Shown in pieces: positions 4,101 through 22,984 of a stretch of DNA of 64,000 nucleotides. Numbering within the stretch: the first letter of the stretch is position 1; the number at the start of each line of letters is the position of its first letter. Source of the stretch: a virus; IMG/VR virus record IMGVR_UViG_3300032286_000925, positions 1-64,000 of that record; one strand, given 5' to 3'. Below the pieces are notes generated by a model, which saw nothing but the letters and a program-made list of their open reading frames with translations, did not search any database and was not told the origin of the DNA. A program made the translations under genes and the position numbers.

Positions 4101-4277
4101 GGTTCTCCTTAGTTATATTCTATTGTACCGCACTTTTCCTACAACTCTTAACATATAAGAAACCGCGTAGCGGCATTTAGCTGAGCGAAGCGAAGCAATT
4201 GTGCAAGACGGCGAAGCCGGCTTGCCAGCTGCGAAGCAGCGAATTCTGATTTTTATTAATTGTTTTACGCACCTAAA

Positions 4278-4297
4278 CCCTAGCCTTTCGGCTAGGG
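4278..4297 (-). terminator. Cassette terminator hairpin (representative; related hairpins lie beside most repeat copies)
   Basis: CCCTAGCC-GAAA-GGCTAGGG on the minus strand just after a stop codon; near-identical at 6419 and 10944; CCCTGCC-GAAA-GGCAGGG variants near 6847, 7910, 8444, 9183 and 9719. Confidence 0.8.
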
Positions 4298-4310
4298 CTA
4301 GGCTGACTAA

Positions 4311-4532
4311 CTAATCTCTAAGTGCTCTCAAAGCCCAGATGAAACTAGCAAGGATTAGGGTGATTAGGACACAAGTTACGCCATACCAAGCGGTGTATTG
4401 TTCTAGGGCATAGGTGTTCTCGTATACTTGCCACTCGTAGTCGTATCGCTTTACAAGCATTATAGAGATTATGGCAGACATTCCAAGAGATAAGAATAGT
4501 GCTACACGGGTGATGAATAGTGAAAGGTTCAT
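4311..4532 (-). CDS. Two-TM membrane protein, paralog of 6038..6259
   Basis: AGGAG RBS; clearly similar to 6038..6259. Confidence 0.85.
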   Translation of the reverse strand: MNLSLFITRVALFLSLGMSAIISIMLVKRYDYEWQVYENTYALEQYTAWYGVTCVLITLILASFIWALRALRD

Positions 4533-4585
4533 TGGAACTCCTGATAGTAGTTAGGTGATGCTAGGCAGAGGTTTCCACCTAAGAC

Positions 4586-4614
4586 AAGTATGGCAGTTGT
4601 TAGAAAGTAAGTCA
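4586..4614 (-). promoter_or_regulatory. Cassette promoter (representative)
   Basis: TTGACT-17 nt (ending TGC)-CATACT; an equivalent TTGAC lies about 20 bp from nearly every repeat copy. Confidence 0.8.
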
Positions 4615-4725
4615 AACTTAGAAATACGGCGGCGTTTTATTTTTTAATTGCGAACCTAATTCTGATCTATTAATTGTTTTACCGTGCCTAACCCCTAACC
4701 TTTCGGCTAGGGGCTAGGTTAGGGA

Positions 4726-4950
4726 TTACTTGCGTTTCCAAATAATCGGTGCTAAGGCAAAGAATAGGCTGGCAACTCCACCTATCCATAAGCCGTCTAG
4801 GGCAACGCCTAACGCTGTGTTTGTCGGCTCTGCTCCATTGGCAACCAATAGGGCATAGATTAGGACATAAACCGCGGCTATTGCTGGCGTAAGGATTATG
4901 CTGGCAAGTAGTCGGCGAGCAACTACAACTGATTTTCTTGGTTGGTTCAT
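4726..4950 (-). CDS. Two-TM membrane protein
   Basis: AAGGAG RBS; hydrophobic segments. Confidence 0.75.
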   Translation of the reverse strand: MNQPRKSVVVARRLLASIILTPAIAAVYVLIYALLVANGAEPTNTALGVALDGLWIGGVASLFFALAPIIWKRK

Positions 4951-5031
4951 TTTTGTTCTCCTTGTTATCGGTGTTGCTGGTTGGGGGTTGCCTAACCCTG
5001 CCTATTGCTAGACAGGGCTAGGCTGTAAAAC

Positions 5032-5253
5032 TTAGTTGCTCTTGTTCTCTGGTAGTTCTGTCCACCTAGTCCAAGTTTTAGGCAACTCTCCTAAGTTCAC
5101 TGCTGTTTCACCGTGTCCTAGACAAGTGAACATTTCAGGGTCGGTTAGTGAACTCCACAAGACGCTATCGGCTGACTTATCGCAAGACAAGACATCGCAA
5201 CGGTGTCTGGTTGTTGTGGTTAGTTTTGTTGTAAATAACTCCATAGTAATCAC
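5032..5253 (-). CDS. Small Cys/His-containing hypothetical protein
   Basis: Cassette position; AGGTG RBS; true start may be the internal Met. Confidence 0.65.
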   Translation of the reverse strand: MITMELFTTKLTTTTRHRCDVLSCDKSADSVLWSSLTDPEMFTCLGHGETAVNLGELPKTWTRWTELPENKSN

Positions 5254-5668
5254 CTACTTTCTACGGGCATACCCGTAGTTCTAGTTTGCCAGAGTATAAG
5301 ACATAAGTCAAACACCTAGCCGTGCGGCGTTTTATTTTTTAATTGCGAACCTAATTCTGATCTATTAATTGTTTTACGGCACTAACCCCTAACCTTTCGG
5401 CTAGGGGCTAGGGCTGCTTAGGGCTTAGTTCCAAACTTCCAAAACTTTTTTCTAATCCAAAAAGTCCCGTGTGTTCGGCAGAACACCTTGTGCTTACAAG
5501 GAACTAAAACTAAAGTTCCGTTGTCTTTTGGCTCTTTGACTAGTCCCCTTGCGAATAGTTCGGCTTGCTCGGCATCGCCTTTTTGCTCTATAAACATAGT
5601 TCTCCTTGTTATCGGTGTTGCTGGTTGGGGGTTGCCTAACCCTGCCTTTCGGCAGGGCTAGGCTGGGA

Positions 5669-5851
5669 TTAGTCCTCTATTGGTGTAGTTATACAAGGAC
5701 AGTTTACGCTAGTGCCTTTACAACAAGGGCAGTCTTTATTGTCCTTACGCCACATAAGGTCGTCCATACACTTCAAGCAAGGCCAGTCGGTAGTTGAGAT
5801 ACAACCTCCAAGTTTGGAACAAACAGTTTCGTCATACTTACAACAGGGCAT
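5669..5851 (-). CDS. Small Cys-rich protein
   Basis: AGGAG RBS; about 10 Cys in 60 aa. Confidence 0.65.
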   Translation of the reverse strand: MPCCKYDETVCSKLGGCISTTDWPCLKCMDDLMWRKDNKDCPCCKGTSVNCPCITTPIED

Positions 5852-6037
5852 AACAACTCCTAGTTAGTTTTGGTATCAGGATTTTCCCTGACGGGTTCAG
5901 TCTTTCACACTTCAGCGTAAGGGTCAAGTCTAGGTGGTGAGCAATGGTTATATATCCAATTGCGAACCTAATTCTGATCTATTAATTGTTTTACGCCACT
6001 AACCCCTAACCTTTCGGCTAGGGGCTAGGCTGACTAA

Positions 6038-6259
6038 CTAATCTCTAAACGCTGTCCAAATCCAAGCGAAACTGGCAATGGCTAGGGTGATTAGAACCCA
6101 AGAAACGGCAGTCCAAGTTGTGTAGTGGTCTAGGGCATAGGTGCTGTTATAGATGTCCCATTGGTATTCGTATTCCTTAGCAAGTTTTAGTGAGATTACG
6201 GCAGACAAGCAGATAGAGACGAATAGTGCTGAACGGGTGATGATAAGTGATAGGTTCAT
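6038..6259 (-). CDS. Two-TM membrane protein, paralog of 4311..4532
   Basis: Both begin MNLSL.ITR.ALF and end RD. Confidence 0.85.
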   Translation of the reverse strand: MNLSLIITRSALFVSICLSAVISLKLAKEYEYQWDIYNSTYALDHYTTWTAVSWVLITLAIASFAWIWTAFRD

Positions 6260-6449
6260 TAGAACTCCTACTAGTAGTTAGGTGGTGCTTGGATAGATAC
6301 GCTATCCAATACAATTATGGCATAGTCGTAAGTGATTAGTCAAATAGGAATGCCGAGCAGCTTTATATTTTTAATTGAGCTTCTAATTCTGATCTATTAA
6401 TTGTTTTACGCGCCTAAACCCTAGCCTTTCGGCTAGGGCTAGGCTGGGA

Positions 6450-6719
6450 TTAGAACGGAACTGATAGTCCTAACCTGCCTTGTAGTTTCTCCACTTCCTT
6501 TTTGAGTAAGTGTAGTTCTAGGCTGTTGTATGGTTGTAGGGCATAGTTGTTTATCAACTCGCCGCAGTCGTGGCAAGCAAACCCTTTCAACACAGGTTCG
6601 CCATTTGGGTATCTAATGCTAAGTCCGTAGGCATTGGCAGACAACTCTCCACTTGGGTTTCCACAGGAACAGAACACTAGGTTCATTTGGTATGGTGCTA
6701 GTTCAGTCATAGTAATCAC
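6450..6719 (-). CDS. Zn-finger-like hypothetical protein
   Basis: CSCG...CHDC; AAGGAG RBS. Confidence 0.7.
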   Translation of the reverse strand: MITMTELAPYQMNLVFCSCGNPSGELSANAYGLSIRYPNGEPVLKGFACHDCGELINNYALQPYNSLELHLLKKEVEKLQGRLGLSVPF

Positions 6720-6882
6720 TCTCCTTATTAGACTTCACAGGTCTATTCTTTCAGTTTATCGGTGCTAAGTCAAACACCTAGCGCGGCGCGTTTATTTTTT
6801 AATTGCGAACCTAATTCTGATTTTATTAATTGTTTTACGGCACTAACCCTGCCTTTCGGCAGGGCTAGGCTCTCGGTGGTGA

Positions 6883-7113
6883 TTACTTCCAAGCACCGAT
6901 AACTTTCATCAACTCGTTTGGAGTGGTCTTGAGTTCTCGGCAGAGTGTCGCCATCATTCCTGACGGGATTTGACGCTCTAGGTGGAAATAACGGCTAAGG
7001 CTGGACTTCTGTAAGCCTGTAGCGATAGCGAACTGATTTAGGGACTTGTAGCCTAGTTTGGTGTATCTTGCGACAAACCAATTCCAAGCCGTAGCGATTT
7101 GAGTTTTACTCAT
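6883..7113 (-). CDS. XRE/Cro-family helix-turn-helix regulator
   Basis: SLNQFAIATGLQKSSLSRYF..ERQIP...LCREL pattern. Confidence 0.85.
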   Translation of the reverse strand: MSKTQIATAWNWFVARYTKLGYKSLNQFAIATGLQKSSLSRYFHLERQIPSGMMATLCRELKTTPNELMKVIGAWK

Positions 7114-7348
7114 TTTGCTCCTTGATTAGTGGATAGGTTGGGGGCTGAGTGGTTAGGCAAGGCTTCGCAACTGAGCCTAACCACTCACGCTATTTAGTTG
7201 TGGGTCTAGTATTTCAGGTAATCGGTGATTAGTCAAATAGCAAGTAAGGCGGCGCGTTTATTTTTTAATTGCGAACCTAATTCTGCTTTTATTAATTGTT
7301 TTACGCCAAAAGCCTAACCCTTTCGGGCTAGGCTCTCGGCACTATGGG

Positions 7349-7696
7349 TTAGAACTCGTTAGCCATTTGAGCCATAAACTCTATGGCTCTAGCGTAGTTC
7401 TCATCAAGGGACAAGGTTTCTCCCCTTGCGTTTGAGCCACCTGTGAAGACGACAGTTCCAACGATAGGGCTAGACGCTCCTAGCATTTCGTAGAAACGAG
7501 TTGCTACCTTGTTGAGTGGTAGCCCCTTGTGTAGCCCTTCATCATCTACCCAGAAATCTAGGGCAGGCTGAATGGTTACGTGGTCAAACCAGTTACCGAT
7601 AGCTGATTTGATAGCGTCTGAAATCTCCACTTCTGGAACTTCAATTCGCTCGGTGGTGTTGTCTGGGCGGACAACTAAAGCGTGAATAGTGTTCAC
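7349..7696 (-). CDS. DUF3846-like protein
   Basis: FWVDDEGL.KGLPLN..AT...IVGTVVFTG; start moved to the GTG after the AAGGA RBS. Confidence 0.75.
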   Translation of the reverse strand: MNTIHALVVRPDNTTERIEVPEVEISDAIKSAIGNWFDHVTIQPALDFWVDDEGLHKGLPLNKVATRFYEMLGASSPIVGTVVFTGGSNARGETLSLDENYARAIEFMAQMANEF

Positions 7697-7939
7697 GGCA
7701 GTTTCCTTACTACTAGTAGTTTGGCGTTGCTCTGCGGCACTGGCACCCAGCACTCTTACCGAAACAAGACAGAGCAACGCATCAGGGTATTCCCTGACGG
7801 GTTCAGTCTTTCACATTATCGGTGCTAAGTCAAGCACCTAAGTATGCGTGGCGTTTTGTTTTTAATTGAGCTTCTAATTCTGATTTTATTAATTGTTTTA
7901 CGGCACTAACCCTGCCTTTCGGCAGGGCTAGGGCTAAGG

Positions 7940-8209
7940 TTAGAAGGCTTTGATAGCCTCGCCAAGAGTTCCAAACTCTAGGAACTCACTCAGTTCTTTA
8001 ATTCCGTCTGGTGTTGCTAGTCGGATTGTATAGCGTGAGCAACTTCGGTCAGCAACGTGTTCGCTGGTTATGAACTTCCAGCCGTTCTCGTGGGGGGTCA
8101 GAGTTTCCCAATAGACTTCAGAGTTCCAGAATTTCATCGTGGTTTCACTAAACCAATTTTGATTGTTCTTGATGATTTCCTGCCACTCTTGGCTTTCTTT
8201 GTTTGTCAT
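7940..8209 (-). CDS. Conserved phage hypothetical protein
   Basis: WFS..TMKFWNS and FITSE motifs; start moved to the ATG after AGGAG. Confidence 0.75.
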   Translation of the reverse strand: MTNKESQEWQEIIKNNQNWFSETTMKFWNSEVYWETLTPHENGWKFITSEHVADRSCSRYTIRLATPDGIKELSEFLEFGTLGEAIKAF

Positions 8210-8580
8210 TTTTCTCCTAGTCGGTAGTCGCAAAGTGAGCAGTAATCAACTGCTAGCAAGGTCTTTCCTGCTCACTTCGCTAAGGCTTATGTTTCTCGAA
8301 CCAGCAACCTTTGCTGGATTTCACCCTGCTCCAAGTATTTCATACTTACGGCACTTAGTCAAGCCGTAGGTGTGGCGGCGTGTTTTGTTTTTTAATTGAG
8401 CTCTTAATTCTGCTTTTATTAATTGTTTTACGCAAGGCAACAACCCTGCCTTTCGGCAGGGCTGTCGCTTTTACTACTCAACGGTGCAGATACAGTTTGA
8501 GCCAAGTCCGTCACAACAAATACAGACTAACTGGTCAAGTTCGGCAATCTCACCTATGCCATCACAGACTGTGCAGTTGC

Positions 8581-9030: not shown

Positions 9031-9217
9031 AATTTACTCCTAGTTTAGGGTTTAGTGTAGAGGGTTCTCTACACTCTCAGTCTGCCATAGATAGCCGTAG
9101 TAGTCAAACTATCGGAGCTGCGGCGCGTTTACTTTTTAATTGAGCTTCTAATTCTGATCTATTAATTGTTTTAGGGCACTAACCCTGCCTTTCGGCAGGG
9201 CTAGGCTGGTGGAGATA

Positions 9218-9523
9218 CTAACTCTCTCTACCGCTGCCACCACAGGACACACAACGCTGTTCGTATCTGTCCTCGCCAACTCCATTACAACTTGAGCAGT
9301 GGTCGGGGTCTTCGTTTCCGTCTGGCTGGTCTGGGGCTGGCAACTCAACTTCGTCAAACTCGGCGTGCCAAAGTTCGTCTGGTATTGACCAAATAGTTGT
9401 CAATTCCATTAGTCTTGTCCGTAGTAGCGATAAGACTTGTTCTTTTGCGTCTTCAAGCCAAGTATCGTCATCGGTGATGTCTTCAATTACAGTCTTGTAG
9501 GACTTGATTACTTCTTCTAGCAT
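9218..9523 (-). CDS. Hypothetical protein with C-terminal CxxCxGxG zinc finger
   Basis: CSSCNGVG...CVSCGGSG; start corrected to the ATG after AGGAG. Confidence 0.75.
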   Translation of the reverse strand: MLEEVIKSYKTVIEDITDDDTWLEDAKEQVLSLLRTRLMELTTIWSIPDELWHAEFDEVELPAPDQPDGNEDPDHCSSCNGVGEDRYEQRCVSCGGSGRES

Positions 9524-9746
9524 TTCTCTCCTAGTAGTTAGTGGGTGAGGTGAGAGGGTAAGCAGGACAACTAAGGTATGAAACACAATTATTTCGCTTA
9601 CCCTCTCGGGTCTAGTCTTTCATACTTCACCGTAGTAGTCAAATACCTAAGGTGTCGCGGCGTTTTATTTTTTAATTGAGCTTCTAATTCTGCTTTATTA
9701 ATTGTTTTACACCACCAACCCTGCCTTTCGGCAGGGCTGGCAGTGC

Positions 9747-10220
9747 TTACCAAGCAGAACTGAATACTGCGACTACTAACCAAGTTGAGAGCAGTAGCCA
9801 AGGACCAAGTGGCACACTTGTTCCTATCGGTGCTTTCCGCATAATCACATAAACAACTGCGAGTAGTGAGAATAGAACTGATAGTGGAATGATTAGCAGA
9901 GCAATAAGCGGTGAATACACGCCAACTGCGAGCAGTAGGGCAGTAATGAACTTCACATCACCCATTCCAACTACATCAAAGTAGTTTAGGACAAGTCCAA
10001 TAATGAACCAAGCGAACGGCAAGCCAACTGCGAGCAGTAGGTTTATCCAACTTTGAGTAGCGACATTCACAGTGATAGCGGTAATGAACGCTAGGGCGGC
10101 GAATGGTAGAACAATTTTGTTCGGTAAGCGGTGTAACTTGTAGTCAATGACTATAAGCGGTATTGTAGCAACCGCAAGATAAACAAGCGGTAGAGCAGAA
10201 ATAATGTCTAAGATAGGCAT
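9747..10220 (-). CDS. Prepilin peptidase (A24 family, Flp/TadV-like)
   Basis: Multi-TM protein with D....LPN and GMGDVK catalytic Asp motifs and a C-terminal PLGPWL. Confidence 0.88.
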   Translation of the reverse strand: MPILDIISALPLVYLAVATIPLIVIDYKLHRLPNKIVLPFAALAFITAITVNVATQSWINLLLAVGLPFAWFIIGLVLNYFDVVGMGDVKFITALLLAVGVYSPLIALLIIPLSVLFSLLAVVYVIMRKAPIGTSVPLGPWLLLSTWLVVAVFSSAW

Positions 10221-10403
10221 TATGTTCCTTTCGGGTTATTTGGGTGTAGGCGGTTGCCTACGCTATAAGTCTTTCACACTTCATACTGTAAGTCAAACCG
10301 CAGGTGTGTTCCGGGGGTTTTATTTTTTAATTGAGCTTCTAATTCTGATCTATTAATTGTTTTACGCCACTAACCCCCTTTCGGGGGCTAGGGCTAGCAG
10401 TGG

Positions 10404-10755: not shown

Positions 10756-10976
10756 TTTTACTCCTAGGTTTTGGGGATAAATAAGTTGGGAGAGCAAGCG
10801 AACCTGTCCCCACAGACTTGCTCTCCCGTGTTTAGTCTTTCATAGTTCGGTAGATAAGTCAATCCGTAAGTGTGTCGGCGTAGTTTACTTTTTTAATTGA
10901 GCTCTTAATTCTGCTTTTATTAATTGTTTTTAGAAACACCGAACCCTAGCCTTTCGGCTAGGGCTGGTGTATGGGA

Positions 10977-11237: not shown

Positions 11238-11449
11238 TTTGTCCTCCTCTCGGTTGAACTAGGTGGCAGTTTAGCAAGTCTGCGTCTTGTTGTAGAGGGC
11301 TTTCTACGCTATCAGTCTTTCATACTTCGACAGATAAGTCAAACTAGGGTGTGCCGAGCAGCTTTATATTTTTAATTGAGCTTCTAATTCTGATCTATTA
11401 ATTGTTTTACACCGAAACCCCAACCTTTCGGCTGGGGCTCGGTAGCAAA

Positions 11450-11653
11450 CTAATCTACGCTAACCCACTTGATAGCGGTGCGTAGCAAATTGTCGTAGTC
11501 TCCCGACTGACTTTCGGTTAGGTATTCAGATACTTCGTCCTCTGAAACTCCTGCCTTTTTTAGTGCTGATGAAACTCTTGCCATAATAGACCAAGCGTTT
11601 CCGTCAAGTCCTACTAACTGAACTTTGACTTCTGGGTATTTCGGGTTTTCCAT
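11450..11653 (-). CDS. Conserved phage hypothetical protein (LVGxDGNA...SGDYD)
   Basis: AGGAG RBS; recognisable small helical phage family. Confidence 0.85.
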   Translation of the reverse strand: MENPKYPEVKVQLVGLDGNAWSIMARVSSALKKAGVSEDEVSEYLTESQSGDYDNLLRTAIKWVSVD

Positions 11654-12170
11654 TTTTATCTCCTAGTTGTTTGAGTGAGCCTTTTAATTCCCCACTTGCT
11701 CAGGTGGAGTGGTGCTATATGTGAGTGGGTGGGTTGTCTATTACCACCAAGGAGAAGTCTAAGAGTTCTTAGGAACCGCCTTAGTCCTACCAACGCTTTC
11801 AGCCGCTAAACTGGGGTCGCTAAACCCACGCTGTGCCTTTCTTACCCCTCCTAGACAGAGGGCTTCGTTCAGCCACACTCCAAGTCAGCCGTCGCTTCCT
11901 TGTTGATACAAGTATGGCAGATAGCCTTCCGTAAGTCAAATCGTATGTCGGGTCGGCGGTTTTGTTTTTAATTGAGCTTCTAATTCTGATCTATTAATTG
12001 TTTTACGCCACCAACCTACCCTTTCGGGTAGGCTGGCAGACTTTATTGGTTGTGGTCGCAGAACGCTTTGGCACACTCGGGACACGCTTGCTTTTCGCAG
12101 TTGTAGCATTTTTCCCATTTGTCTAATGAGGCTTGCGTTGTTTCCTCATCACACTCGGGACACCAGACAC

Positions 12171-12458: not shown

Positions 12459-12687
12459 TTTATCTCCTAGTTGATTAGTGGAAAGGTGAGAGGGTAGGTT
12501 AGCAGTGAAAGGTATGAACGGACCTTGTTCTTCCTACCCCCTCGGGTCTAGTCTTTCATACTATCCGTAGATAGTCAAATACCTAGTGGGTCGCCCGGTT
12601 TATTTTTTAATTGAGCTTTTAATTCTGATTTTATTAATTGTTTTAGGAGCACCAGACCTGACCCTTTCGGGTCAGGCTGGCAAGTTG

Positions 12688-12987
12688 CTACTCGTGAAGA
12701 AGAGTTGCCAAGTCCTTTGGTGTCCAATGTAAATCTCTCTCAATTTTGAGACCCATTGGACCATTAGCATTTTCTAACTCGCTTAGTGAGAAGTAGCCAA
12801 GTTCTTTCTCAAATCCATCAACAAGACCGAAGAAAGTGTCTGTGCCATCAAACTCGGCAGCATACCAAGTCCAGTTAGCCCAAGGGGTGAAGAATTTTAC
12901 AGTTGCCATAACTTCGCTGAGGTTCTTGCCCTCAGTTTCGTTCCACTTTGCGAGTTTTGCTTTCTCGCTTTCTGGTAGTAGTTCCAT
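12688..12987 (-). CDS. DUF2958-like protein
   Basis: VKFFTPW..WTWY..E.DG...FGLV.G.E.ELGYFSL.EL....IERDLHW. Confidence 0.88.
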   Translation of the reverse strand: MELLPESEKAKLAKWNETEGKNLSEVMATVKFFTPWANWTWYAAEFDGTDTFFGLVDGFEKELGYFSLSELENANGPMGLKIERDLHWTPKDLATLLHE

Positions 12988-13176
12988 TTTTACTCCTAGT
13001 TAGGTGTTGCTTTGTGGATACTTTCCACGCTCTAAGTCTTTCACGCTATCCGTAAATAGTCAAATACCTAGTGGGTCTCGCCCGGTTTGTTTTCAATTGA
13101 GCTTCTAATTCTGCTTTATTAATTGTTTTACGCGAAACAACCTACCCTTTCGGGTAGGCTGTCGCTATTTAGGAGA

Positions 13177-13671: not shown

Positions 13672-13856
13672 TTTTACTCCTAGTCTTTGGGTTAGGTGAG
13701 AGGAGTTTCCTCTCGGTGTTAGTCTTTCATACTTATTGCCAGAAGTCAAACTTGGGTATGTCGGGCGGCTTTATTTTTTTAATTGAGTTTCTAATTCTGA
13801 TTTTATTAATTGTTTTATGCCACCGACCCGACCCTTTTGGGTCAGGTCGGCAGAGG

Positions 13857-14168: not shown

Positions 14169-14340
14169 TTTTCTCCTAGGTTGGAAGTGTGGTCTTTCCA
14201 CATTACCAGCATTTCACATATCAATCCGTAAGTCAAATGTTTGGGGGTGTCGCCAGGTTTGTTTTTAATTGATCTTTTAATTCTGATTTTATTAATTGTT
14301 TTATGCTGAGAACTTGCCCTTTCGGGCAAGCCTCTTGCGA

Positions 14341-15132: not shown

Positions 15133-15310
15133 ATTTACTCCTAGTTGTAAATTGTGGATACTTTCCACAAGACAAGTCTTTCATAGATATATCCGTAAGT
15201 CAAACTTTTGATAGGAGCTGCGGTTTACTTTTTTAATTGAGCTTTTAATTCTGCTCTTATTAATTGTTTTACGAAGAAACCTCCCACCCTTTCGGGTGAG
15301 AGGCTTTGGT

Positions 15311-15625: not shown

Positions 15626-15899
15626 TTTTCCTCTGTTTCTGTGGATACTTTCCACACTTGTAGTTTTTCACACTTACGCTAATAAGTCAAACTACTTTGA
15701 TATTGACGAGCTTTATTTTTTAATTGAGATCTTAATTCTGCTTTATTAATTGTTTTACGCAAGAACCCCCGACCTTTTGGTCAGGGGCTTTGCTTACTTG
15801 GACTTACTGATTAGGAACGCTTGTAGCGTGGAAAGTCTAATGATTACTCGGCTAAGTAGTCGTATAGCCTTTTGGTTGAGGTCAGGATTATATTTATGC

Positions 15900-16389: not shown

Positions 16390-16570
16390 TTTTCCTCGGT
16401 TTCTGTGGATACTTTCCACATCTAAATCCTCTCACATTATCTTTACATAATCAAGTATTCGGTGCTGCGAGTTGGTTTTGTTTTTTAATTGAGCTTCTAA
16501 TTCTGCTTTATTAATTGTTTTACAAAACCAAACCCTCCACCATTTCTGGTAGAGGGCTGGTTGGTAGTCG

Positions 16571-16972: not shown

Positions 16973-17168
16973 TTGTTTCTCCTCGATTTGTGTAAGCGTT
17001 GTTGCTTACATATTTATTCTTACACGCTTACAACTTTTAGTCAAACTACCTGTGCTGCTAGCGGTTTTATTTTCAATTGAGTTTTTAATTCTGCTTTTAT
17101 TAATTGTTTTTAGCCAAAACCCTACCTACTAAGAGAGGCTAGTAGGCAGGGCTGGCTTTGGTCAGGTG

Positions 17169-17600
17169 TTAGTAGTCCTGAACATTTGTGTCATTGACAT
17201 CTAGGTCATAACTCTCGATAGAGAAGCCGTTAGACCAGTGGGTATCAATGCTGACCTCAAACGAGGTGTATGAAAGGTCGTCCCAGTCGAAACTGCGAGG
17301 TGCTTTGATAGTCATAGTTCCAGAAATACTAACTTCTACTTCCTTCTCTACTTCGGTGTCAATGTCAAAGATTTTAGCAATCTCTTCTGCGTGGTCGTCA
17401 AGGCTGTCCCAGTTCTCGTCTAGGTATTCCTCTAACCTGTCCTTTTTGCGTTCTAGGTCTGTCCACCAACGAATAACTTTTTCGTTTTCTGACTTTGCGA
17501 ACTCTAACTCTTTGGTTAGTTGTGCGACTTCGGCAGTAAGTTCCTCAACGGACTTTACTACTACTTCTTGTGTTTCTTGTGGTTCATTTGTTTCAGACAT
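17169..17600 (-). CDS. Acidic coiled-coil protein, distant paralog of 18760..19221
   Basis: GAGGAG RBS; shared A.IF..E..KEV.V.I C-terminal domain. Confidence 0.8.
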   Translation of the reverse strand: MSETNEPQETQEVVVKSVEELTAEVAQLTKELEFAKSENEKVIRWWTDLERKKDRLEEYLDENWDSLDDHAEEIAKIFDIDTEVEKEVEVSISGTMTIKAPRSFDWDDLSYTSFEVSIDTHWSNGFSIESYDLDVNDTNVQDY

Positions 17601-17943
17601 TTTGTCTCCTCGGTTTATTTGGGTTGTAGAGGCAAGTCGGCACTAGGAGATACTTTCTTGCCTCTACACTTTTAGTTTAAGCCCTAGACCTGACTTCTGT
17701 CAAACTTAGATGTATAGGTCGGCGTTTATATTTTCAATTGAGCTTTTAATTCTGCTTTTATTAATTGTTTTACAAACCAAAACCCCTCGCTTTTCAGCAA
17801 GGGGCTCGGTCGGTTAGTTCAGGTAAGTTGCCTTACAGTAATCACAAACCCAACTTGGTTCGTTTGGATACAGTGGGAACTTATGTGGGTTGAGTTCATC
17901 TACCTCAAATCCGTCAGCACCACAGAAATTACAAGCGTCAGGT

Positions 17944-18276
17944 TCAGACATCTTCTTCCTCTCTCGGTGAGCAGGTCAGACATACTTCGGTGTCGTCAAA
18001 CTCGTCTCGGACTTCCTCTGGAATGAACGCCTTACAGTATGAGCAGAGGTAGAGTTCATCTTCGGTGAAGTAAGAGGCAGTGAAGAAATCTTTTGCCCCG
18101 TTTGGATAATCCTCTTTACACTCTCGGCAGAGCCAGAAGTAAGTAAGTTCGGTCATCTTTGCTGGGTCGTGAATACCCTCTGGGACTTTTGTAGTGGCAC
18201 TTAGCACACTAATCGGGTCGCCATCATTGTAGTTTCCACAACTGTCGCAAGTTATGTCGTGGTGGTTATCTATCAT
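17944..18276 (-). CDS. Multi-CxxC zinc-finger protein
   Basis: Four CxxC motifs; GAGGAG RBS; start corrected. Confidence 0.75.
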   Translation of the reverse strand: MIDNHHDITCDSCGNYNDGDPISVLSATTKVPEGIHDPAKMTELTYFWLCRECKEDYPNGAKDFFTASYFTEDELYLCSYCKAFIPEEVRDEFDDTEVCLTCSPREEEDV

Positions 18277-18497
18277 TTTATCTCCTCGGTTTATTTGGGT
18301 TGGGGGCAAGTAGAAACAGATATAACACCTTGCCCCCGAGTTCAGTTTGCCAGAAATACTTGGCTAAGTCAAATAGCAGTTGAGTTTCGCGATTTATATT
18401 TTCAATTGAGTTTTTAATTCTGCTTTTATTAATTGTTTTTAGCGAAATTGAGCAGTTTAGACACTTGCTCGGGTGTTTCCTTTGGGTAAAGGGGGGC

Positions 18498-18698
18498 TTA
18501 TTCGTCTCCGAAACTTACTACATTGTTTTTGCCACAGAACTCGCACTCAACATCAGCGTCGCCAGACCTGCCACCAACTACAATATCGGTTTCGTTTTCT
18601 TCTTCGCACTCGCCACACTCAAAGGAAACTCCGATTTCTCTTTCGTCGTCCCAAGGTGTAGCAGTTTTCCAGCCGTCATATCCCGGAATATGTTCCAT
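18498..18698 (-). CDS. Small zinc-ribbon protein
   Basis: GGAGG RBS; YDGWKT motif and two CxxC. Confidence 0.75.
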   Translation of the reverse strand: MEHIPGYDGWKTATPWDDEREIGVSFECGECEEENETDIVVGGRSGDADVECEFCGKNNVVSFGDE

Positions 18699-18759
18699 TT
18701 TTTACCTCCGTTAGTTGTGGTTAGGCAGTTTATACACTTGCCTAGGTGTCCGAGGTGGT

Positions 18760-19221
18760 CTAGTTTTCTGAGAGGTTGATTTTATCAACGCTGACATCAA
18801 GAACAAACTCGCTTGAGTAGCCGATACTGATATCAACTTCAATATCACTTTCAGCGTCCTCAACGCTTTGTCCCATTGGAACGCTTATTGTTCCGTAGGC
18901 AGTGATTTCAATAGCAACATCAACTTCCTTGGTAGTTTCCCAACCGAAGATTTCGGCTAGTTCTACCAACTCGTCTGCGTCAGCGCAAGCACTTTCAATT
19001 CTTTCCTGAAACCAATCCTCAGCAGAACCGATGTTCATAATAAGTTCTGAACGCTTGGTGTCAGCAAACTTCTTTTGGTCGTTTAGGCTGGCGTGTGCTT
19101 TGTAGGTGTATTCCAACAACTCTGCCCAAGCAAGAGCGTCGTTGCCAATAATCTCAACTACATTGTTCGGTGTAAGAGTTCCTTTTAGAAACTCGTCTTT
19201 CTGTTCGTTTGTAAGATACAT
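18760..19221 (-). CDS. Acidic protein, distant paralog of 17169..17600
   Basis: GAGGA RBS. Confidence 0.8.
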   Translation of the reverse strand: MYLTNEQKDEFLKGTLTPNNVVEIIGNDALAWAELLEYTYKAHASLNDQKKFADTKRSELIMNIGSAEDWFQERIESACADADELVELAEIFGWETTKEVDVAIEITAYGTISVPMGQSVEDAESDIEVDISIGYSSEFVLDVSVDKINLSEN

Positions 19222-19546
19222 ATTTTCCTCGTTTGATTTGGAGAGCGTTTTTGCTCTCGGTTATAGTTTGACAGATTTGTTGTTTGTAGTCAAATACATT
19301 TAGCAGGGTCGCGCTTATATTTTTAATTGCTGCCTTTAATTCTGCTTTTATTAATTGTTTTAGCAGAACAAGCCCTACCTTTTGGTAGGACTTGCTTTGC
19401 TAGGAAATTAGAGAGGAGTTCCACAATCGCTACATTGTATATGCTCTTTACAATCTTGGTCGCACTCCCAACCGAAATCGTCTGGGGTTTCTACTTCCCA
19501 AGTATCTTCGCCAGACTTTCCACATACTCCACAGAAATCGCTTTTA

Positions 19547-19816
19547 TCACTCATTTTTTACCTCTGCTCCAAGTTCTTTTAGTTGCTCGGTAAGTTCCTC
19601 TACAACATCATAGATAAACTCTCGGTGTTCTAGCACCCAATCTAAATCGCCTTGGACACTACTGATGATTTTGCTCCACGCCTCCGTTAGTTGCTCGGGG
19701 GTCATATCACCTGTGATGAAACTTGCTGTATGGTCTTTATCAAACCAAGTTATAGCAAGTTCATCATCAGGTTTATATTCTTTGAGCAACATAGAGACAA
19801 TCTCTACAACTTTCAC
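19547..19816 (-). CDS. Hypothetical protein related to 24322..24651 and 23973..24329
   Basis: Similar N-terminus (M.V.E....L....P...i...W..KD). Confidence 0.7.
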   Translation of the reverse strand: MKVVEIVSMLLKEYKPDDELAITWFDKDHTASFITGDMTPEQLTEAWSKIISSVQGDLDWVLEHREFIYDVVEELTEQLKELGAEVKNE

Positions 19817-20052
19817 AAAGTCTCCAACTCGATTTCAGCAATAGCGACATTTAGTAGTGCTACAAGTTCCTTAGCGTCTGCTAGCGATAGGTGCTGACTT
19901 ACACTAGAAATGATGCCACCGATTTCCAACCCACCGACATCTCGTAGGTGTGTGCTGATATCTAGGTCAATAATAGTTCCGTCTCCCATATAGGTAGAAC
20001 CTACCCTTGTTCCAGCATTGATACTTAGTGATGTCATTTTTCTTTCAAACAT
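19813..20052 (-). CDS. Hypothetical protein
   Basis: GAGGAG RBS; start corrected. Confidence 0.7.
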   Translation of the reverse strand: MFERKMTSLSINAGTRVGSTYMGDGTIIDLDISTHLRDVGGLEIGGIISSVSQHLSLADAKELVALLNVAIAEIELETL

Positions 20053-20228
20053 TTTTACTCCTCGTTTGTTTTTGTGGTCTTTCCACATTACTATTCTGAC
20101 ACGAACCCCTGACATTAGTCAAACTTTATTTTGGGGTCTGCGTTTTATTTTTAATTGCGTTTTTAATTCTGCTTTTATTAATTGTTTTTACGGAAAAGCA
20201 GTAGCCATTTCTGACTACTGCCTTTTTG

Positions 20229-20600
20229 TTATCCGTAGATTACATCACCGAAGAAAGCAATTTGTAGCAATCCGTCTGACACGCAAGCGTCAGGGTCTTC
20301 TAAGTCCCACGCACCCCCACAATGAGTAAGTCCTTTTGTAAGAACGGTGCTGTAAGCCTTAGCCAAATCCTCAATGGTTAGAGTTTTGGTTGTTGTTGGC
20401 TCGTCTGGGTCGTCAGGGTCGCAAGCAGTTATGGTGAATTCGCCTGTGCCGATTTTGTCCCAATCGCCTCCGTTAGAGTATTTTAGGCTTACCCACCACT
20501 CCATATACTCCCAGCCTCCACCGAAAGTTGCCTCCCAAAGTAGTTGCTTGTCTATTGGGACATTGATGTTGATGTTGTTTTCCATTATCGGTTCTCCCAA
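20229..20600 (-). CDS. Conserved phage protein ending DAC..D.LLQ.A.FGDVIYG
   Basis: Motif pattern; likely starts at the second Met. Confidence 0.8.
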   Translation of the reverse strand: MGEPIMENNININVPIDKQLLWEATFGGGWEYMEWWVSLKYSNGGDWDKIGTGEFTITACDPDDPDEPTTTKTLTIEDLAKAYSTVLTKGLTHCGGAWDLEDPDACVSDGLLQIAFFGDVIYG

Positions 20601-20755
20601 TACTTATCAATGGCAATCATACTTTCTAGGTCGCTAATCCTACCCTCTATAAGTATGAGAGTTTGTGGAGTAAGTATTCCCTTATCCACTAAGAGTTCTA
20701 TTTCTTTTTTATCTACGCTAAGATTAGCGAACTCGTTTAGGTGTTCTTCTAGCAT
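20585..20755 (-). CDS. Hypothetical protein
   Basis: GAGGAG RBS; start corrected. Confidence 0.65.
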   Translation of the reverse strand: MLEEHLNEFANLSVDKKEIELLVDKGILTPQTLILIEGRISDLESMIAIDKYWENR

Positions 20756-20950
20756 TTTGCTCCTCGTTTGTTTTTGTGGTCTTTCCACATTTCCAACTTT
20801 ACACGAACTTTACACGAAGTCAAGTCTGCTGCTGCGAAATGTTTATTTTTAATTGAGATTTTAATTCTGGTTTATTAATTGTTTTAGATAGCAGAAACCC
20901 ACCAACCTAAACTCTCGGTTTAGTTTATTGGTGGGCTTTGCTAGGAATAA

Positions 20951-21274
20951 CTACGCAGTTCTGATGTAGTCGTATTCGGTGGTTCGTAGAGTTTCTGCGT
21001 AAGCGTCTGGGAACTTCTCTTGTAGCAACTCTCGGTCAAACGAGGTGTTCTTACTGAATACTAGGCTGAAAGCCTTGATTTTGCCAAAGAACCCGATTGT
21101 CTTACCTGCTGGGAGAGAGGCTCGTAGGATTGCCTCGGCTTGTGCCTTGCGTTCCTTTGCGTCTTTCTCGTCAGCCTTAGCCTGAATAAAGTCAGCGTGG
21201 GCTTTCTTTACCTTGGCACTTGTGATGATAACTGCGTTCTCTGGCAGTTCTGGTGCGTTGTCGTTGTTAGACAT
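20951..21274 (-). CDS. Hypothetical phage protein
   Basis: AAGGA RBS; cassette position. Confidence 0.8.
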   Translation of the reverse strand: MSNNDNAPELPENAVIITSAKVKKAHADFIQAKADEKDAKERKAQAEAILRASLPAGKTIGFFGKIKAFSLVFSKNTSFDRELLQEKFPDAYAETLRTTEYDYIRTA

Positions 21275-21391
21275 TTGTTTTCCTTTTCGTGAGATTGTTT
21301 AGTTGCCTCACATCTATAAACTTACTTGGTTATGTGTTTCTTGTCAAGTCTTTCGTTTGATGTTTAGACATTTATTTTTTTAATTGAGGTT

Positions 21392-21628
21392 TTAATTCTT
21401 TTTGCTTGTGTAAAAGATATTGACTACTGTAAACCACTCTAGAGTTTTTTTGAATTGCCAATCAGGGTTTAGATGATAACACTCGTTATACCAATCAAGG
21501 TAGATTTGATTACCCGAACTTCTATCGGGGAACGCCTCTTGAACCCATAGATACATAAAGTTTAGGTTTTTTTGCCCATATTCTAGGTCAATAACTATTT
21601 CTGGGTATTTTGGAATCGGTAGTTCCAT
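21392..21628 (-). CDS. Diverged relative of 11450..11653
   Basis: Shared PKYPE(I/V) start and W(F/V).V end. Confidence 0.6.
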   Translation of the reverse strand: MELPIPKYPEIVIDLEYGQKNLNFMYLWVQEAFPDRSSGNQIYLDWYNECYHLNPDWQFKKTLEWFTVVNIFYTSKKN

Positions 21629-21715
21629 ATGCGTCTTTCGTCTTTTGTGGATTTTGTAGTGAGCCTTTTATAGACAAATAAGGTAAATGCTCAGGTCTAT
21701 ATCTTTATTCTAACA

Positions 21716-22024
21716 CTAATCGTCTTCGTCTAGTGTTTCGCAGTATGCTCCACAGGAGTAGCAGAGGTAAGTTCCCCATAAAGACCAATAGCCAGCGTGT
21801 TCCCCTGCGATTTCTAGGCTACCAATTTTGTAGGTTTTTTCATCCTCGTCATACCAGACAAGTTCTTTTGAGCAGTTTTCACAGATTTCCCAAGTAAAGA
21901 TTTCGTGGCAACCATTCCAGCCATTATACTTTTCATCTGTTTTAGCACAGGTGTCAGAGCAGTAATAGTTTCTATCTACTACTTGTCCGTCTTTGTCGTC
22001 AATATCTATTAGGTGTGCTGACAT
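21716..22024 (-). CDS. Cys-rich hypothetical protein
   Basis: GAGGA RBS. Confidence 0.75.
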   Translation of the reverse strand: MSAHLIDIDDKDGQVVDRNYYCSDTCAKTDEKYNGWNGCHEIFTWEICENCSKELVWYDEDEKTYKIGSLEIAGEHAGYWSLWGTYLCYSCGAYCETLDEDD

Positions 22025-22341
22025 TTTTTCCTCGTTTCCGTAAGTCTTTCTTACAAGATAAGTTTATAGTTTTGAGGCTAGAAGTCAAGTTTTTTGCGCG
22101 AGGCTGGGCTTTTATTTTTAATTGAAAGCTTTAATTCTGCTTTTATTAATTGTTGATCTTAATTCTGCTTTTTATTAATTGTTTTTAATTCTGCTTTTTA
22201 TTAATTGTTTTAGCTGCCAAGCCAGAAATGCGAAATCCCTCATAGCGTTAGGAACTATGAGGGACTTCGTGCCGAGGTAAATGAGGGGGCAAAGCCTCGG
22301 CAAGTGGGGCAGAGGAAACGAGAGAAACTCTGCCACCAAGA

Positions 22342-22975: not shown

Positions 22976-22984
22976 ACTACGAGT

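Follow-up and report, generated by a model that had tools for sequence, protein, structure and literature searches.

The array and its surroundings

The 64,000-nt window analysed here belongs to a 95,385-bp contig (estimated completeness only 71%) of a large, uncultured freshwater actinobacterial phage (an actinophage), whose nearest named relative is DSL-LC01. Positions 4222-22213 are occupied by an array that lies on the minus strand throughout and comprises 28 full units between a triplicated head and a decayed last copy. The initial annotation had described about 30 gene cassettes delimited by a conserved 47-bp repeat found only at 4.2-22.2 kb, and this description is borne out. The 15-nt head of the repeat has 30 minus-strand matches at 4254-22213 with at most two mismatches, compared with a mean of 0.31 and a maximum of 3 in dinucleotide-preserving shuffles. 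Furthermore, a pattern composed of the A block, the B block (CAGAATTA) and the C block of the repeat yields 30 copies, which all lie at 4.6-22.2 kb on the minus strand, whereas the rest of the contig has none. A lone two-mismatch match to the 15-nt head at position 56231 is unrelated. The features are as follows (hairpin energies in kcal/mol).

687..3724 (-), genes directly downstream of the array, on the same strand: NlpC/P60 3152-3724, small membrane protein 2793-3029, PG_binding_1 protein 2096-2602, large terminase 687-2096
4222..22213 (-), whole array: 28 promoter-bearing units, decayed terminal copy, triplicated head
4222..4268 (-), last repeat copy, decayed: A block and part of B only, no promoter, hairpin just upstream (-24.0)
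4587..4718 (-), junction unit: hairpin 4687-4718 (-27.3), repeat 4641-4682, -35 TTGACT 4610-4615, -10 CATACT 4587-4592
5283..5414 (-), junction unit: hairpin 5379-5414 (-26.7), repeat 5336-5377, -35 5306-5311, -10 CAAACT 5283-5288
5899..6034 (-), junction unit: hairpin 5995-6034 (-25.9), repeat 5953-5994, -35 TTGACC 5922-5927, -10 AAGACT 5899-5904
6314..6444 (-), junction unit: hairpin 6412-6444 (-26.3), repeat 6368-6409, -35 6338-6343, -10 CATAAT 6314-6319
6745..6870 (-), junction unit: hairpin 6840-6870 (-24.6), repeat 6796-6838, -35 6768-6773, -10 AAGAAT 6745-6750
7208..7340 (-), junction unit: hairpin 7305-7340 (-29.9), repeat 7262-7304, -35 7231-7236, -10 AATACT 7208-7213
7805..7934 (-), junction unit: hairpin 7903-7934 (-24.5), repeat 7859-7901, -35 7828-7833, -10 AAGACT 7805-7810
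8334..8474 (-), junction unit: hairpin 8432-8474 (-29.3), repeat 8389-8431, -35 8357-8362, -10 AATACT 8334-8339
9079..9206 (-), junction unit: hairpin 9176-9206 (-24.6), repeat 9133-9174, -35 9102-9107, -10 CAGACT 9079-9084
9614..9755 (-), junction unit: hairpin 9711-9755 (-31.2), repeat 9669-9710, -35 9637-9642, -10 AAGACT 9614-9619
10268..10394 (-), junction unit: hairpin 10366-10394 (-22.8), repeat 10324-10365, -35 10291-10296, -10 AAGACT 10268-10273
10834..10970 (-), junction unit: hairpin 10936-10970 (-26.7), repeat 10890-10932, -35 10857-10862, -10 AAGACT 10834-10839
11314..11443 (-), junction unit: hairpin 11411-11443 (-24.4), repeat 11369-11410, -35 11337-11342, -10 AAGACT 11314-11319
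11911..12039 (-), junction unit: hairpin 12008-12039 (-25.5), repeat 11965-12006, -35 11934-11939, -10 CATACT 11911-11916
12550..12689 (-), junction unit: hairpin 12648-12689 (-26.0), repeat 12604-12646, -35 12573-12578, -10 AAGACT 12550-12555
13035..13165 (-), junction unit: hairpin 13132-13165 (-22.5), repeat 13090-13131, -35 13058-13063, -10 AAGACT 13035-13040
13721..13853 (-), junction unit: hairpin 13820-13853 (-29.0), repeat 13776-13818, -35 13744-13749, -10 AAGACT 13721-13726
14208..14334 (-), junction unit: hairpin 14308-14334 (-18.0), repeat 14262-14304, -35 14231-14236, -10 AATGCT 14208-14213
15175..15306 (-), junction unit: hairpin 15277-15306 (-23.2), repeat 15230-15272, -35 15198-15203, -10 AAGACT 15175-15180
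15662..15793 (-), junction unit: hairpin 15759-15793 (-24.0), repeat 15717-15758, -35 15685-15690, -10 AAAACT 15662-15667
16426..16562 (-), junction unit: hairpin 16526-16562 (-25.3), repeat 16482-16523, -35 TTGATT 16449-16454, -10 GAGGAT 16426-16431
17016..17156 (-), junction unit: hairpin 17113-17156 (-27.6), repeat 17070-17112, -35 17039-17044, -10 AAGAAT 17016-17021
17674..17811 (-), junction unit: hairpin 17775-17811 (-25.0), repeat 17731-17773, -35 TTGACA 17698-17703, -10 TAAACT 17674-17679
18344..18480 (-), junction unit: weak hairpin 18450-18480 (-8.9), repeat 18399-18441, -35 18367-18372, -10 CAAACT 18344-18349
19265..19399 (-), junction unit: hairpin 19364-19399 (-20.7), repeat 19320-19363, -35 19288-19293, -10 CAAACT 19265-19270
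20093..20235 (-), junction unit: hairpin 20191-20235 (-21.0), repeat 20148-20190, -35 20117-20122, -10 CAGAAT 20093-20098
20795..20932 (-), junction unit: weak hairpin 20890-20932 (-9.6), repeat 20846-20887, -35 20818-20823, -10 AAAGTT 20795-20800
22060..22246 (-), array head: three tandem partial repeats 22115-22213, first promoter with -35 22083-22088 and -10 22060-22065, weak hairpin 22216-22246
22342..23266 (-), genes directly upstream of the array: HTH_XRE protein 22985-23266, 72-aa ORF, SSB 22342-22764

The units are spaced at a median of 617 nt (range 415-1271), and each carries one to three small ORFan genes, where one or two mostly unrelated genes had first been noted. Most of the proteins have no family assignment, and the array contains duplicates from two gene families. 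The concept of a modular set of small ORFan genes, each unit with its own promoter, is supported.

Anatomy of the junction

In the direction of transcription, a unit reads hairpin, AT-rich repeat, GC-rich spacer, TTGACT-17-(TG)NANNNT, 5'UTR hairpin, ribosome-binding site and genes. The AT content of the repeat is 80%, compared with 42% for the spacer and 41% for the hairpin. Within the 47 nt of the repeat lie three invariant blocks (A, B and C), each with an AATTA core, separated by linkers that differ in sequence and length; this arrangement points to selection on the blocks, beyond what homogenisation alone would give.

A predicted promoter follows 28 copies of the repeat, with a -35 of TTGACT in 24 of the 28 (the remaining four include TTGACC, TTGATT, TTGACA and one mismatch-tolerant match), a spacing of 17 nt in 24 and NANNNT at -10 in all 28, in line with the promoter pattern given in the initial annotation. 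A strict version of this pattern (TTGACN, exactly 17 nt, TG at -15/-14; TTGACN-17-TGnNANNNT) occurs 24 times in the entire contig, and 23 of these matches are inside the array behind a repeat copy. Judged from these motifs, the promoter would be of the host's sigma-A type with an extended -10. Block C ends 22-27 nt before the -35, and the A block lies 61 nt (57-63) from it; thus, the spacer, whose sequence varies, has been kept for its length rather than its sequence. This tight register makes an action of the repeat in cis on the promoter most likely, and it fits the earlier suggestion of a shared regulatory site. In relatives, the A block lies 48 nt (47-49; G001) or 49 nt (G002) from the -35. 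However, between lineages block A is shifted relative to the -35 by 11-13 nt and block C by 6-8 nt, which is not compatible with any single helical-face rule.

The hairpins are real RNA structures. Their stems are 9-16 bp with a GNRA loop, 25 units have at least nine consecutive pairs and a GAAA or AAAA loop, and their mean energy is -24.1 kcal/mol, compared with -9.5 for shuffles. In addition, compensatory changes are seen among the stems, and their G-U pairs exist only in the RNA of the minus strand. They had been called terminators, and here the earlier reading stands only in part: there is no U tract, and only three hairpins pass a canonical terminator rule. Given the absence of U tracts, they may terminate transcription weakly or stabilise RNA ends.

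Concerted evolution and cassette exchange

Close relatives share the architecture of the array, but the upstream element is private to each and is present in every copy, so that relatives at 87-92% terminase identity have at least nine different elements. Between orthologous units the hairpin and the promoter/5'UTR are preserved, but the intervening stretch of roughly 70 nt has been replaced in all copies, even in units whose genes differ by a dS of only 0.1-0.25. Hairpin identity tracks orthology (0.72 for orthologous versus 0.61 for non-orthologous units), as does that of the promoter and 5'UTR (0.75 versus 0.52). In contrast, the segment from the hairpin end to the -35 has an identity of 0.76-0.81 within a genome and, between genomes, of 0.63 for orthologous and 0.61 for non-orthologous units. 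Furthermore, the farther apart two copies lie in the array, the lower their identity (Mantel r = -0.51, p = 0.0005). All four combinations of linker variants are present, and the same repeat tail and spacer start are found in two units separated by 5 kb. Taken together, these comparisons of sequence show that the upstream element is lineage-specific and evolves in concert, which is the main result added here. One lineage (L026-L032) has a merely loosely A-rich region at the same place.

Cassette maps of relatives differ by whole units in both order and content, and array order is the same in independent assemblies from two and three samples. The 5'UTR moves with its gene, and the upstream hairpin moves with the preceding gene. 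The dS between orthologous cassettes ranges from 0.02 to >1, and the nearest relative varies by cassette. In a close pair with a common repeat type (L025/L029), cassette indels of 700-840 nt have crossover zones of 38 and 69 nt inside the element and spacer. In strain-level contigs from other samples, which mostly stop 26-45 nt past the joint, within the repeat, so that a converted repeat variant is possible instead of a changed neighbour, gene interiors account for 58% of the length but for only 3 of 44 joint endpoints, whereas the hairpin, repeat, spacer and promoter together account for 21% of the length and for 21 of the 44. The excess between genes is partly expected since chimeric genes seldom survive. 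The repeat had been proposed as a recombination joint, a shared regulatory site or both; junctions do fall in the inter-cassette region, repeat and spacer included, but the repeat is not privileged, the endpoints being distributed from the hairpin to the 5'UTR roughly in proportion to the length of each part. This pattern looks like general homologous exchange rather than site-specific recombination.

A proposed composite regulatory and recombination junction

In the PeSLs of T4-type phages, a stem-loop is combined with a sigma-70 promoter that has an AT-rich region upstream, and recombination takes place in those parts (PMC2839356, PMC4122927). The array junction has the same components and recombines in them; by this analogy, already drawn in the initial annotation and apt, it appears to be a variant of the T4-type PeSL cassettes, a PeSL-like regulatory and recombination junction.

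These results have led to a model that, as a whole, we consider fairly probable, in which one composite junction, repeated 28 times, would serve as both a cis promoter module and a recombination site in an accessory gene region transcribed by host RNA polymerase. The region is probably expressed early, and its genes may act in host takeover or anti-defence. In this model, a very stable GNRA hairpin would close the preceding transcript, and the AT-rich element (about -57 to -103) would be a far-upstream promoter module, which may aid the promoter by bringing in RNA polymerase or a helper protein, through DNA shape or melting, or both; lying right after a U-less hairpin, it may also aid transcript ending. 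A classical UP element sits at -38 to -59, and the array element is too far upstream to be one. Because all junctions are alike, they could be recombined by the phage's own annealing-type system. Within a genome, such recombination would homogenise the element and spacer, giving concerted evolution with identity falling with distance, and would also delete, duplicate and transpose whole cassettes, while co-infecting relatives would swap cassettes through it.

Possible, although rather unlikely, is that a DNA-binding protein encoded by the phage and private to its lineage uses the element as its operator. This protein, an early-promoter activator or a shut-off repressor, would co-evolve with its roughly 30 sites as variants spread by gene conversion, and junction recombination would be a by-product. 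Invariant blocks that differ between lineages would be equally expected from such a protein, and the variable linkers, the register to the -35, the private element beside nearly identical promoters and many nearly identical genes, and the extra partial copies stacked at the array head all accord with it. In addition, an HTH protein gene adjoins the array, and the phage also encodes two WhiB-type regulators. However, no candidate protein was found to change along with the element. Lineages with unrelated repeats have a near-identical HTH recognition helix, and the WhiB proteins have no AT-hook. Furthermore, a phage-made protein could not serve the first round of early transcription unless injected, and the loosely A-rich region of L026-L032 suggests that generic AT-richness can suffice.

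It is more doubtful that the element is mainly the end of the preceding transcript, providing a weak RNA-DNA hybrid for termination or an insulator between very strong promoters, with the promoter register reflecting common descent of the whole junction. The stems adjoin the element (gap 0-4 nt) without a U tract, they covary as RNA on the transcribed strand, and insulation would be useful because lysis and terminase genes in the same orientation follow the array. However, termination depends only on the first 8-10 nt after a hairpin, whereas 47 nt are conserved here, and A-rich RNA is a much weaker release signal than U-rich RNA. The kept length of the spacer to the -35 also speaks against this explanation, as does the decayed last copy, in which the hairpin persists whereas blocks B and C have disappeared along with the promoter, which ties these blocks to the promoter.

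An integron-like or other site-specific system, in which a dedicated recombinase recognises the repeat and moves cassettes as circles, is highly improbable. In its favour, all repeat copies are direct and bound cassettes, and the phage has a gene for a small serine recombinase (contig 66238-66678). However, this gene lies outside the window, 44 kb from the array and with no link to it found, and every cassette has its own promoter. The contig has no tyrosine integrase and the repeat no attC-like self-structure (-0.77 kcal/mol versus -1.17 for shuffles), in line with the initial annotation, which had noted no integrase in the window and no attC-like palindrome. Furthermore, the junctions are scattered over about 200 nt at equivalent positions of two units that share 11-69 nt, which argues for homologous exchange. 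For the composite junction, the enzymes would be those of the phage's annealing-type system: genes for a PD-(D/E)XK nuclease, an AAA_24 (Sak4-like) protein and a DUF669 protein are adjacent at contig 75.2-77.3 kb, a predicted Sak4-type annealing module, and the SSB gene adjoins the array.

Layout of the array and its phage

The presence of about 30 gene units delimited by a repeat, reported in the initial annotation, is real and robust, and that first reading, right in outline, can now be refined to 28 units, a decayed repeat copy, and a three-copy head. When the 15-nt head of the repeat was used as a query with up to two mismatches, 30 matches were obtained on the minus strand (4254-22213), compared with a mean of 0.31 and a maximum of 3 in shuffled sequence. 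A stricter pattern specifying the three conserved blocks (A, B, and C) of the 47-nt element gives 30 copies, all on the minus strand and within the array, and 0 in the remainder of the contig (95,385 bp; an IMG/VR virus record with an estimated completeness of 71%); by this pattern, the absence of the repeat outside the array, previously stated for the window, holds for the whole contig. No comparable repeat family was found in the remainder of the window, an antisense promoter was looked for within the repeat and not found, and neither the repeat nor the junction hairpins matched a known RNA family. The ends of the array are:

4222-4268, minus strand: decayed last repeat copy, without a promoter
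22115-22213, minus strand: array head, three partial repeat copies in tandem

On the minus strand, each of 28 repeat copies precedes a GC-rich spacer, a -35, a -10, a 5'UTR with a small hairpin, an AGGAG-type ribosome site, and ORFs. The units are spaced 415-1271 nt apart (median 617), and the array holds about 45 ORFs; the genes are small (40-164 aa), as had been noted, with one to three per unit rather than one or two. AT content is 80% in the repeat versus 42% in the spacer, which places the -35 hexamer 22-27 nt beyond the end of block C. This hexamer is TTGACT in nearly all of the 28 units and lies 17 nt from the -10 in 24 of them; the -10 has the form NANNNT, most commonly AAGACT, usually with a TG at -15/-14. 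Strict consensus promoters (TTGACN, exactly 17 nt, TG at -15/-14) number 24 in the whole contig, and the 23 that lie inside the array all carry the repeat. Given this concentration and the lack of a comparable repeat family in the rest of the window, the array appears to be the one region of the contig built for the host sigma-A polymerase and consequently is probably expressed early, a timing read from the promoters. Three other promoter-like units, at 35927-35976, 46597-46646, and 49754-49803 (minus-strand reading), have TTGACA, 17 nt, and TAAGGT, with an ATG about 6 nt past the -10 and no AT-rich element; they look like promoters of leaderless mRNAs.

The junction hairpins, originally called terminators, are stable, but they do not have the canonical terminator form. 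In 25 units, the 45 nt ahead of the repeat fold into a stem with at least 9 consecutive pairs, closed by a GAAA (n = 22) or AAAA (n = 3) loop, and the mean hairpin energy is -24.1 kcal/mol versus -9.5 for shuffles. Stem positions 3-9 contain several pair types yet are paired in every sequence, and many of the G-U pairs in the stems would be A-C mismatches if read from the opposite strand; together, these features indicate that selection acts on the structure in the minus-strand RNA. The gap between stem and repeat is 0-4 nt, there is no U tract, and a standard terminator rule is passed by only 3 hairpins. Their role may be that of non-canonical terminators, of 3'-end protectors, or of both.

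The phage itself is actinobacterial and of siphovirus type. Its terminase is located at:

687-2096, minus strand: T4-type large terminase

The nearest named relative of this protein is that of the metagenome-assembled Actinomycetia phage DSL-LC01 (OQ999401; 78.6% amino-acid identity), followed by the terminases of large Microbacterium, Gordonia, and Arthrobacter phages. Among the contig genes are two WhiB regulators, a family A DNA polymerase, a primase-polymerase, and a siphovirus-type tail protein, and the public runs containing the window sequence are freshwater metagenomes, with no RNA run listed among them. The array is directly preceded by an HTH_XRE gene and an SSB gene and followed, on the same strand, by genes for NlpC/P60, a peptidoglycan-binding protein, and the terminase. 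The gene order is shared by DSL-LC01, in which genes for an AAA+ ATPase and a vWA protein are followed by about 35 small genes and the terminase. In the window, the conserved pair upstream of the small-gene region occupies 25394-28339 (minus strand) and consists of a MoxR-type AAA+ ATPase (AAA_5) and a protein of 597 aa that matches vWA weakly; the DSL-LC01 annotation calls their counterparts an AAA ATPase and a cobalamin biosynthesis protein. The WhiB-family genes lie at 53673-53882 of the window and 72667-72867 of the contig (both minus strand), and the product of the latter has an extra C-terminal Cys-rich, zinc-ribbon-like domain. A megablast of the array and another 20 kb against a phage collection gave no match.

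Cassette shuffling and its likely route

It was originally proposed that the repeat serves as a recombination joint, and cassette content and order do differ in the relatives compared (the window, the contigs G001, G002, G003, and G005, and the pair of loci L025/L029). In maps of the window, G001, and G002, the first half of the array is largely syntenic with whole-unit indels and the second half is shuffled, the moved units being those of gene families F26, F30, F34-35, and F37/F38; in G003 and G005, the order is rearranged throughout. Nor are these orders assembly artefacts: the arrays recur, at 99.9-100% identity, in assemblies of two and of three separate samples. When a cassette has changed neighbour, its 5'UTR still tracks its gene (0.66 versus a background of 0.44), and the identity of the upstream hairpin falls toward background (0.67 versus 0.79 with the same neighbour).

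Breakpoints could be placed at two scales. L025 and L029, which share one repeat type and are 90-95% identical, differ by three cassette indels of 700-840 nt; in two of these, the flanks have 38 and 69 nt in common, located within the AT-rich element and spacer, and the third has its boundary at the -10. At the strain level, contigs from four other samples were placed on the array, giving 22 listed joints with 44 endpoints. Among these, only 3 of 44 endpoints fall inside genes, the interiors of which make up 58% of the length, and 21 of 44 fall in the hairpin, repeat, spacer, or promoter, which make up 21%. Compared with the other junction parts, the repeat shows no greater enrichment. Several joints connect corresponding positions in two units; one of them, 12590/13078, with 11 bases in common, drops the F26 cassette and yields the F25-F27 adjacency seen in G001. 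These strain-level repeat-to-repeat joints are consistent with exchange or conversion and are not proof of deletions, as the strain contigs break at repeats, mostly 26-45 nt past the joint, and a converted repeat variant could look alike. The repeats are also the reason that assemblies of these phages break at the array.

Judged from sequence, the joints have the pattern of homologous exchange over the whole junction, not of a site-specific system. As first described, the repeat is no attC-like palindrome (self-folding -0.77 kcal/mol versus -1.17 for shuffles). The reported lack of an integrase extends, for tyrosine integrases, to the whole 95-kb contig (71% complete), in which there is no PF00589 match; a serine recombinase was found, but outside the window and far from the array. 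The relevant contig genes are:

66238-66678, plus strand: small serine recombinase, the only one, 44 kb from the array
75198-77288, minus strand, outside the window: adjoining genes for a PD-(D/E)XK nuclease, an AAA_24 (Sak4-like) ATPase, and a DUF669 protein

The latter trio looks like a phage single-strand-annealing recombination module, and annealing systems of this kind (nuclease, Sak4-like protein, and DUF669 protein plus SSB) act on homologies of tens of bases. The dS of orthologous cassettes runs from 0.02 up to saturation, and the nearest relative changes from cassette to cassette; this spread implies that exchange between lineages is frequent. The 89-aa gene at 19547-19816 (minus strand) encodes a protein 100% identical to its G001 orthologue, with a dS of 0.02, while the genes flanking it in the same cassette have dS values of 0.24 and 0.62. 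This is a very recent exchange of a single gene between lineages.

Concerted change and possible function of the element

A related terminase is present in 512 IMG/VR contigs. The repeats of relatives were surveyed by k-mers (a stricter, automatic promoter-anchored survey recovered only 5 loci), and the full arrays of four relatives were fetched and their orthologous units compared. Relatives with an 87-92% identical terminase have the same layout upstream of it (hairpin, AT-rich repeat, GC spacer, TTGACT promoter), but the AT-rich repeat is lineage-specific, with at least 9 types. Short cores, AATTAATA, CAATTA, and AGAATA, are common to the window element and some other types; two types hold an additional covarying GC hairpin, and one related lineage has merely a loosely A-rich tract at this position. 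In more distant, DSL-LC01-like relatives, an extended -10 promoter is repeated in place of the element. In DSL-LC01 itself, one intergenic motif occurs 33 times at 8600-29320: the inverted pair GATTCT/AGAATC encloses an extended -10 promoter, TGTTATAAT, and a conserved ribosome-site leader, ACGACGAAAGGACA, often comes next; this motif differs from the array's in having no -35 and no long AT-rich upstream element, and it is not mentioned in the DSL-LC01 genome paper. Eight loci of more distant relatives (L219, L232, L234, L240, L247, L250, L253, and L254) have 11-19 copies of another intergenic motif, GTATT(C/T)(A/G)TTTTTTC with a T-rich tract ahead, downstream of the HTH gene. A pattern scan of IMG/VR for the window repeat gave only two single matches, which are probably due to chance, and a loose-pattern scan of metagenomes gave, among the matches listed, single matches only and no strain with the same repeat type.

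When orthologous units of the window are compared with those of G001, there is often hardly any difference in the upstream hairpin or between the -35 and the start codon, whereas the approximately 70 nt from hairpin to -35 are each genome's own version. This is borne out by mean identities for the three segments:

Mean sequence identity of junction segments within a genome, between orthologous units of two genomes, and between non-orthologous units of two genomes
Hairpin: 0.61-0.63; 0.72; 0.61
Hairpin end to -35: 0.76-0.81; 0.63; 0.61
Promoter plus 5'UTR: 0.50-0.54; 0.75; 0.52

The segment from the hairpin to the -35 thus evolves, by these comparisons, in concert within sharp limits, and the pattern persists in units in which gene dS is only 0.1-0.25. 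Within the window, the farther apart two copies lie in the array, the lower their identity (Mantel r = -0.51, p = 0.0005), all four combinations of two multi-base linker variants are present, and two units 5 kb apart have a common tail and spacer start; these observations point to exchange between copies. With about 70 nt replaced in about 30 copies and flanks that follow orthology, the array is a clear natural example of regulatory DNA evolving in concert. The sharp boundary permits testing how far gene conversion alone keeps dozens of promoter modules identical and whether a lineage-specific factor reads them.

The alternative first offered, a shared regulatory site, is supported as far as a cis link to the promoter is concerned. 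There is no variation within blocks A, B, and C, while the linkers between them differ in sequence and by 1-2 nt in length, and the spacer to the -35 is variable in sequence and nearly fixed in length. Block C starts 35-36 nt and block A 61 nt upstream of the -35 hexamer. Furthermore, in the decayed last copy, the hairpin is kept but blocks B and C and the promoter have been lost together. The invariant blocks, the kept spacing, and this joint loss speak for a function of the element in cis with the promoter, beyond being a patch of homology. It may do so through recruitment of polymerase or a helper, through DNA shape, or through easy melting.

The most interesting question is whether a lineage-private element is read by a lineage-private factor. 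In such a private code, a phage-made or injected protein would read the element at about 30 early promoters, and protein and sites would switch together by gene conversion, a scheme that we consider unlikely. If it were true, cassettes could swap freely between relatives, and a co-infecting relative, or a host factor trained on another lineage, could not hijack or silence early expression. The HTH_XRE protein encoded upstream of the array was rejected as the specific reader, its recognition helix being kept in 43 loci with unrelated repeats; a resemblance between the types of its C-terminal tail and the presence of an AGAATA-like block is weak and too thin for use. The WhiB proteins were rejected as AT-hook binders (no AT-hook is visible), and no Lsr2-like gene was found. 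The HTH_XRE gene (22985-23266, minus strand; homologues in L218-L261) is itself unusual in that, across 43 related contigs, its HTH half is strongly conserved and its C-terminal 30-40 residues are hypervariable; its dS versus G001 is 0.82, with 0.2-0.3 for its neighbours.

Comparable upstream DNA is known from UP elements, which lie at -38 to -59, abutting the -35, and from far-upstream activator sites of strong promoters, with rrnB P1 and its Fis sites and the A-rich tracts upstream of T4 early promoters as examples. The array element resembles these in being AT-rich DNA at a fixed register ahead of a near-consensus -35, at what are probably the genome's strongest promoters, but it is near-identical across copies and private to each lineage, and a classical UP element is rejected because -38 to -59 holds the GC-rich spacer and the AT-rich element sits farther out (about -57 to -103). 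Also rejected is helical phasing or A-tract curvature; the distances from block A to the -35 in three lineages (window 61 nt, range 57-63; G001 48, range 47-49; G002 49) fit no single rule.

Known analogues and cassette cargo

The closest analogues, named beside integrons in the initial annotation, are the PeSLs (promoter-early stem-loops) of the hyperplastic regions of the T4-type phages RB49/phi1, T4/PST, and KVP40/nt-1, in which a sigma-70 promoter, an AT-rich upstream region, and a stem-loop are repeated, and crossovers map to the AT-rich region, the loop, or the stretch from the -10 to the start codon (Arbiol et al. 2010, PMC2839356; Comeau et al. 2014, PMC4122927). The array has every sequence-level feature of a PeSL. 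In each, a host-type -35/-10 promoter, an AT-rich upstream part, and a stable stem-loop are combined into an intergenic motif that recurs many times among small ORFan, non-core genes; in each, whole cassettes have been inserted, deleted, or replaced between close relatives, with crossovers in the motif; and neither has a dedicated recombinase, the phage's own recombination system being invoked instead. For PeSLs, mini-circles (by inverse PCR) and both promoter and terminator activity have been demonstrated (PMC2839356; PMC4122927); the promoters and terminators of the array are predicted from sequence. The array also differs in the unrelated phage group and host, in the packing of 28 units head to tail in a single orientation within one 18-kb block, and in an AT-rich part that is long, block-structured, near-identical, set 22-27 nt off the -35 across a GC-rich spacer, and alone replaced in concert, which is not reported in PMC2839356 or PMC4122927. 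Common descent with the T4-type PeSLs is rejected in light of the nearest terminases (actinophage), the WhiB genes, the siphovirus-type tail protein, and the unrelated motif sequences. The array would work like a PeSL but is an independent instance of one. The PeSL-type arrangement is known; what is new is the one-orientation packing, the long, spaced, block-structured element, and its concerted change between close relatives. No actinophage precedent for such an array was found in the literature searched, in the DSL-LC01 paper, or in a large survey of whiB-encoding freshwater phages. The principle that shared promoter-terminator junctions serve as shuffling seams thereby holds not just for T4-type phages with Gram-negative hosts but also for abundant, as yet uncultured phages of freshwater actinobacteria, and the units are compact, insulated, and probably strong expression modules for low-GC Actinobacteria.

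Two other systems are less similar. The stoperators of mycobacteriophage L5 and cluster A are about 30 asymmetric 13-bp repressor sites, intergenic and in one orientation, at which the prophage repressor binds and stops elongation across the temperate phage genome. They share with the element an actinophage setting, about 30 oriented asymmetric copies in short intergenic spaces, and cluster-specific variants. The element differs in its length of 47 nt, its confinement to one region, and its fixed distance to promoters, and neither a repressor nor an integrase for such a system was found (tyrosine integrase search, 95-kb contig). Integrons, too, string together small genes, mostly unrelated, between copies of a repeated site, and their gene content and order vary between relatives, but an integron reading is rejected: there is no attC-like fold, no IntI-type tyrosine recombinase in the 95-kb contig, and no common promoter, since every array cassette has its own promoter and hairpin whereas integron cassettes are promoterless and served by one promoter; the array joints are, moreover, scattered and homology-based.

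Among the 20 array proteins scanned, two have a Pfam match above the curated cut-off. One is a DUF2958 protein encoded in the cassette at 12688-12987; the other, in the cassette at 9747-10220 (minus strand), is a membrane protein (157 aa) assigned to the type IV prepilin peptidases (Peptidase_A24, E = 5e-10), which are unusual among the genes that phage accessory cassettes carry. A long leader at 11718-11899 (minus strand), behind the promoter at 11911-11939 and just upstream of a 67-aa gene (11450-11653), gives a full-model match to the manA RNA motif (RF01745) with 45.8 bits and E = 4e-9, under the gathering score of 55.2. Finally, there are two pairs of paralogous cassettes, one encoding 73-aa membrane proteins (4311-4532 and 6038-6259, minus strand) and the other proteins of 143 and 153 aa (17169-17600 and 18760-19221, minus strand); both pairs are consistent with duplication via unequal exchange at the junctions.
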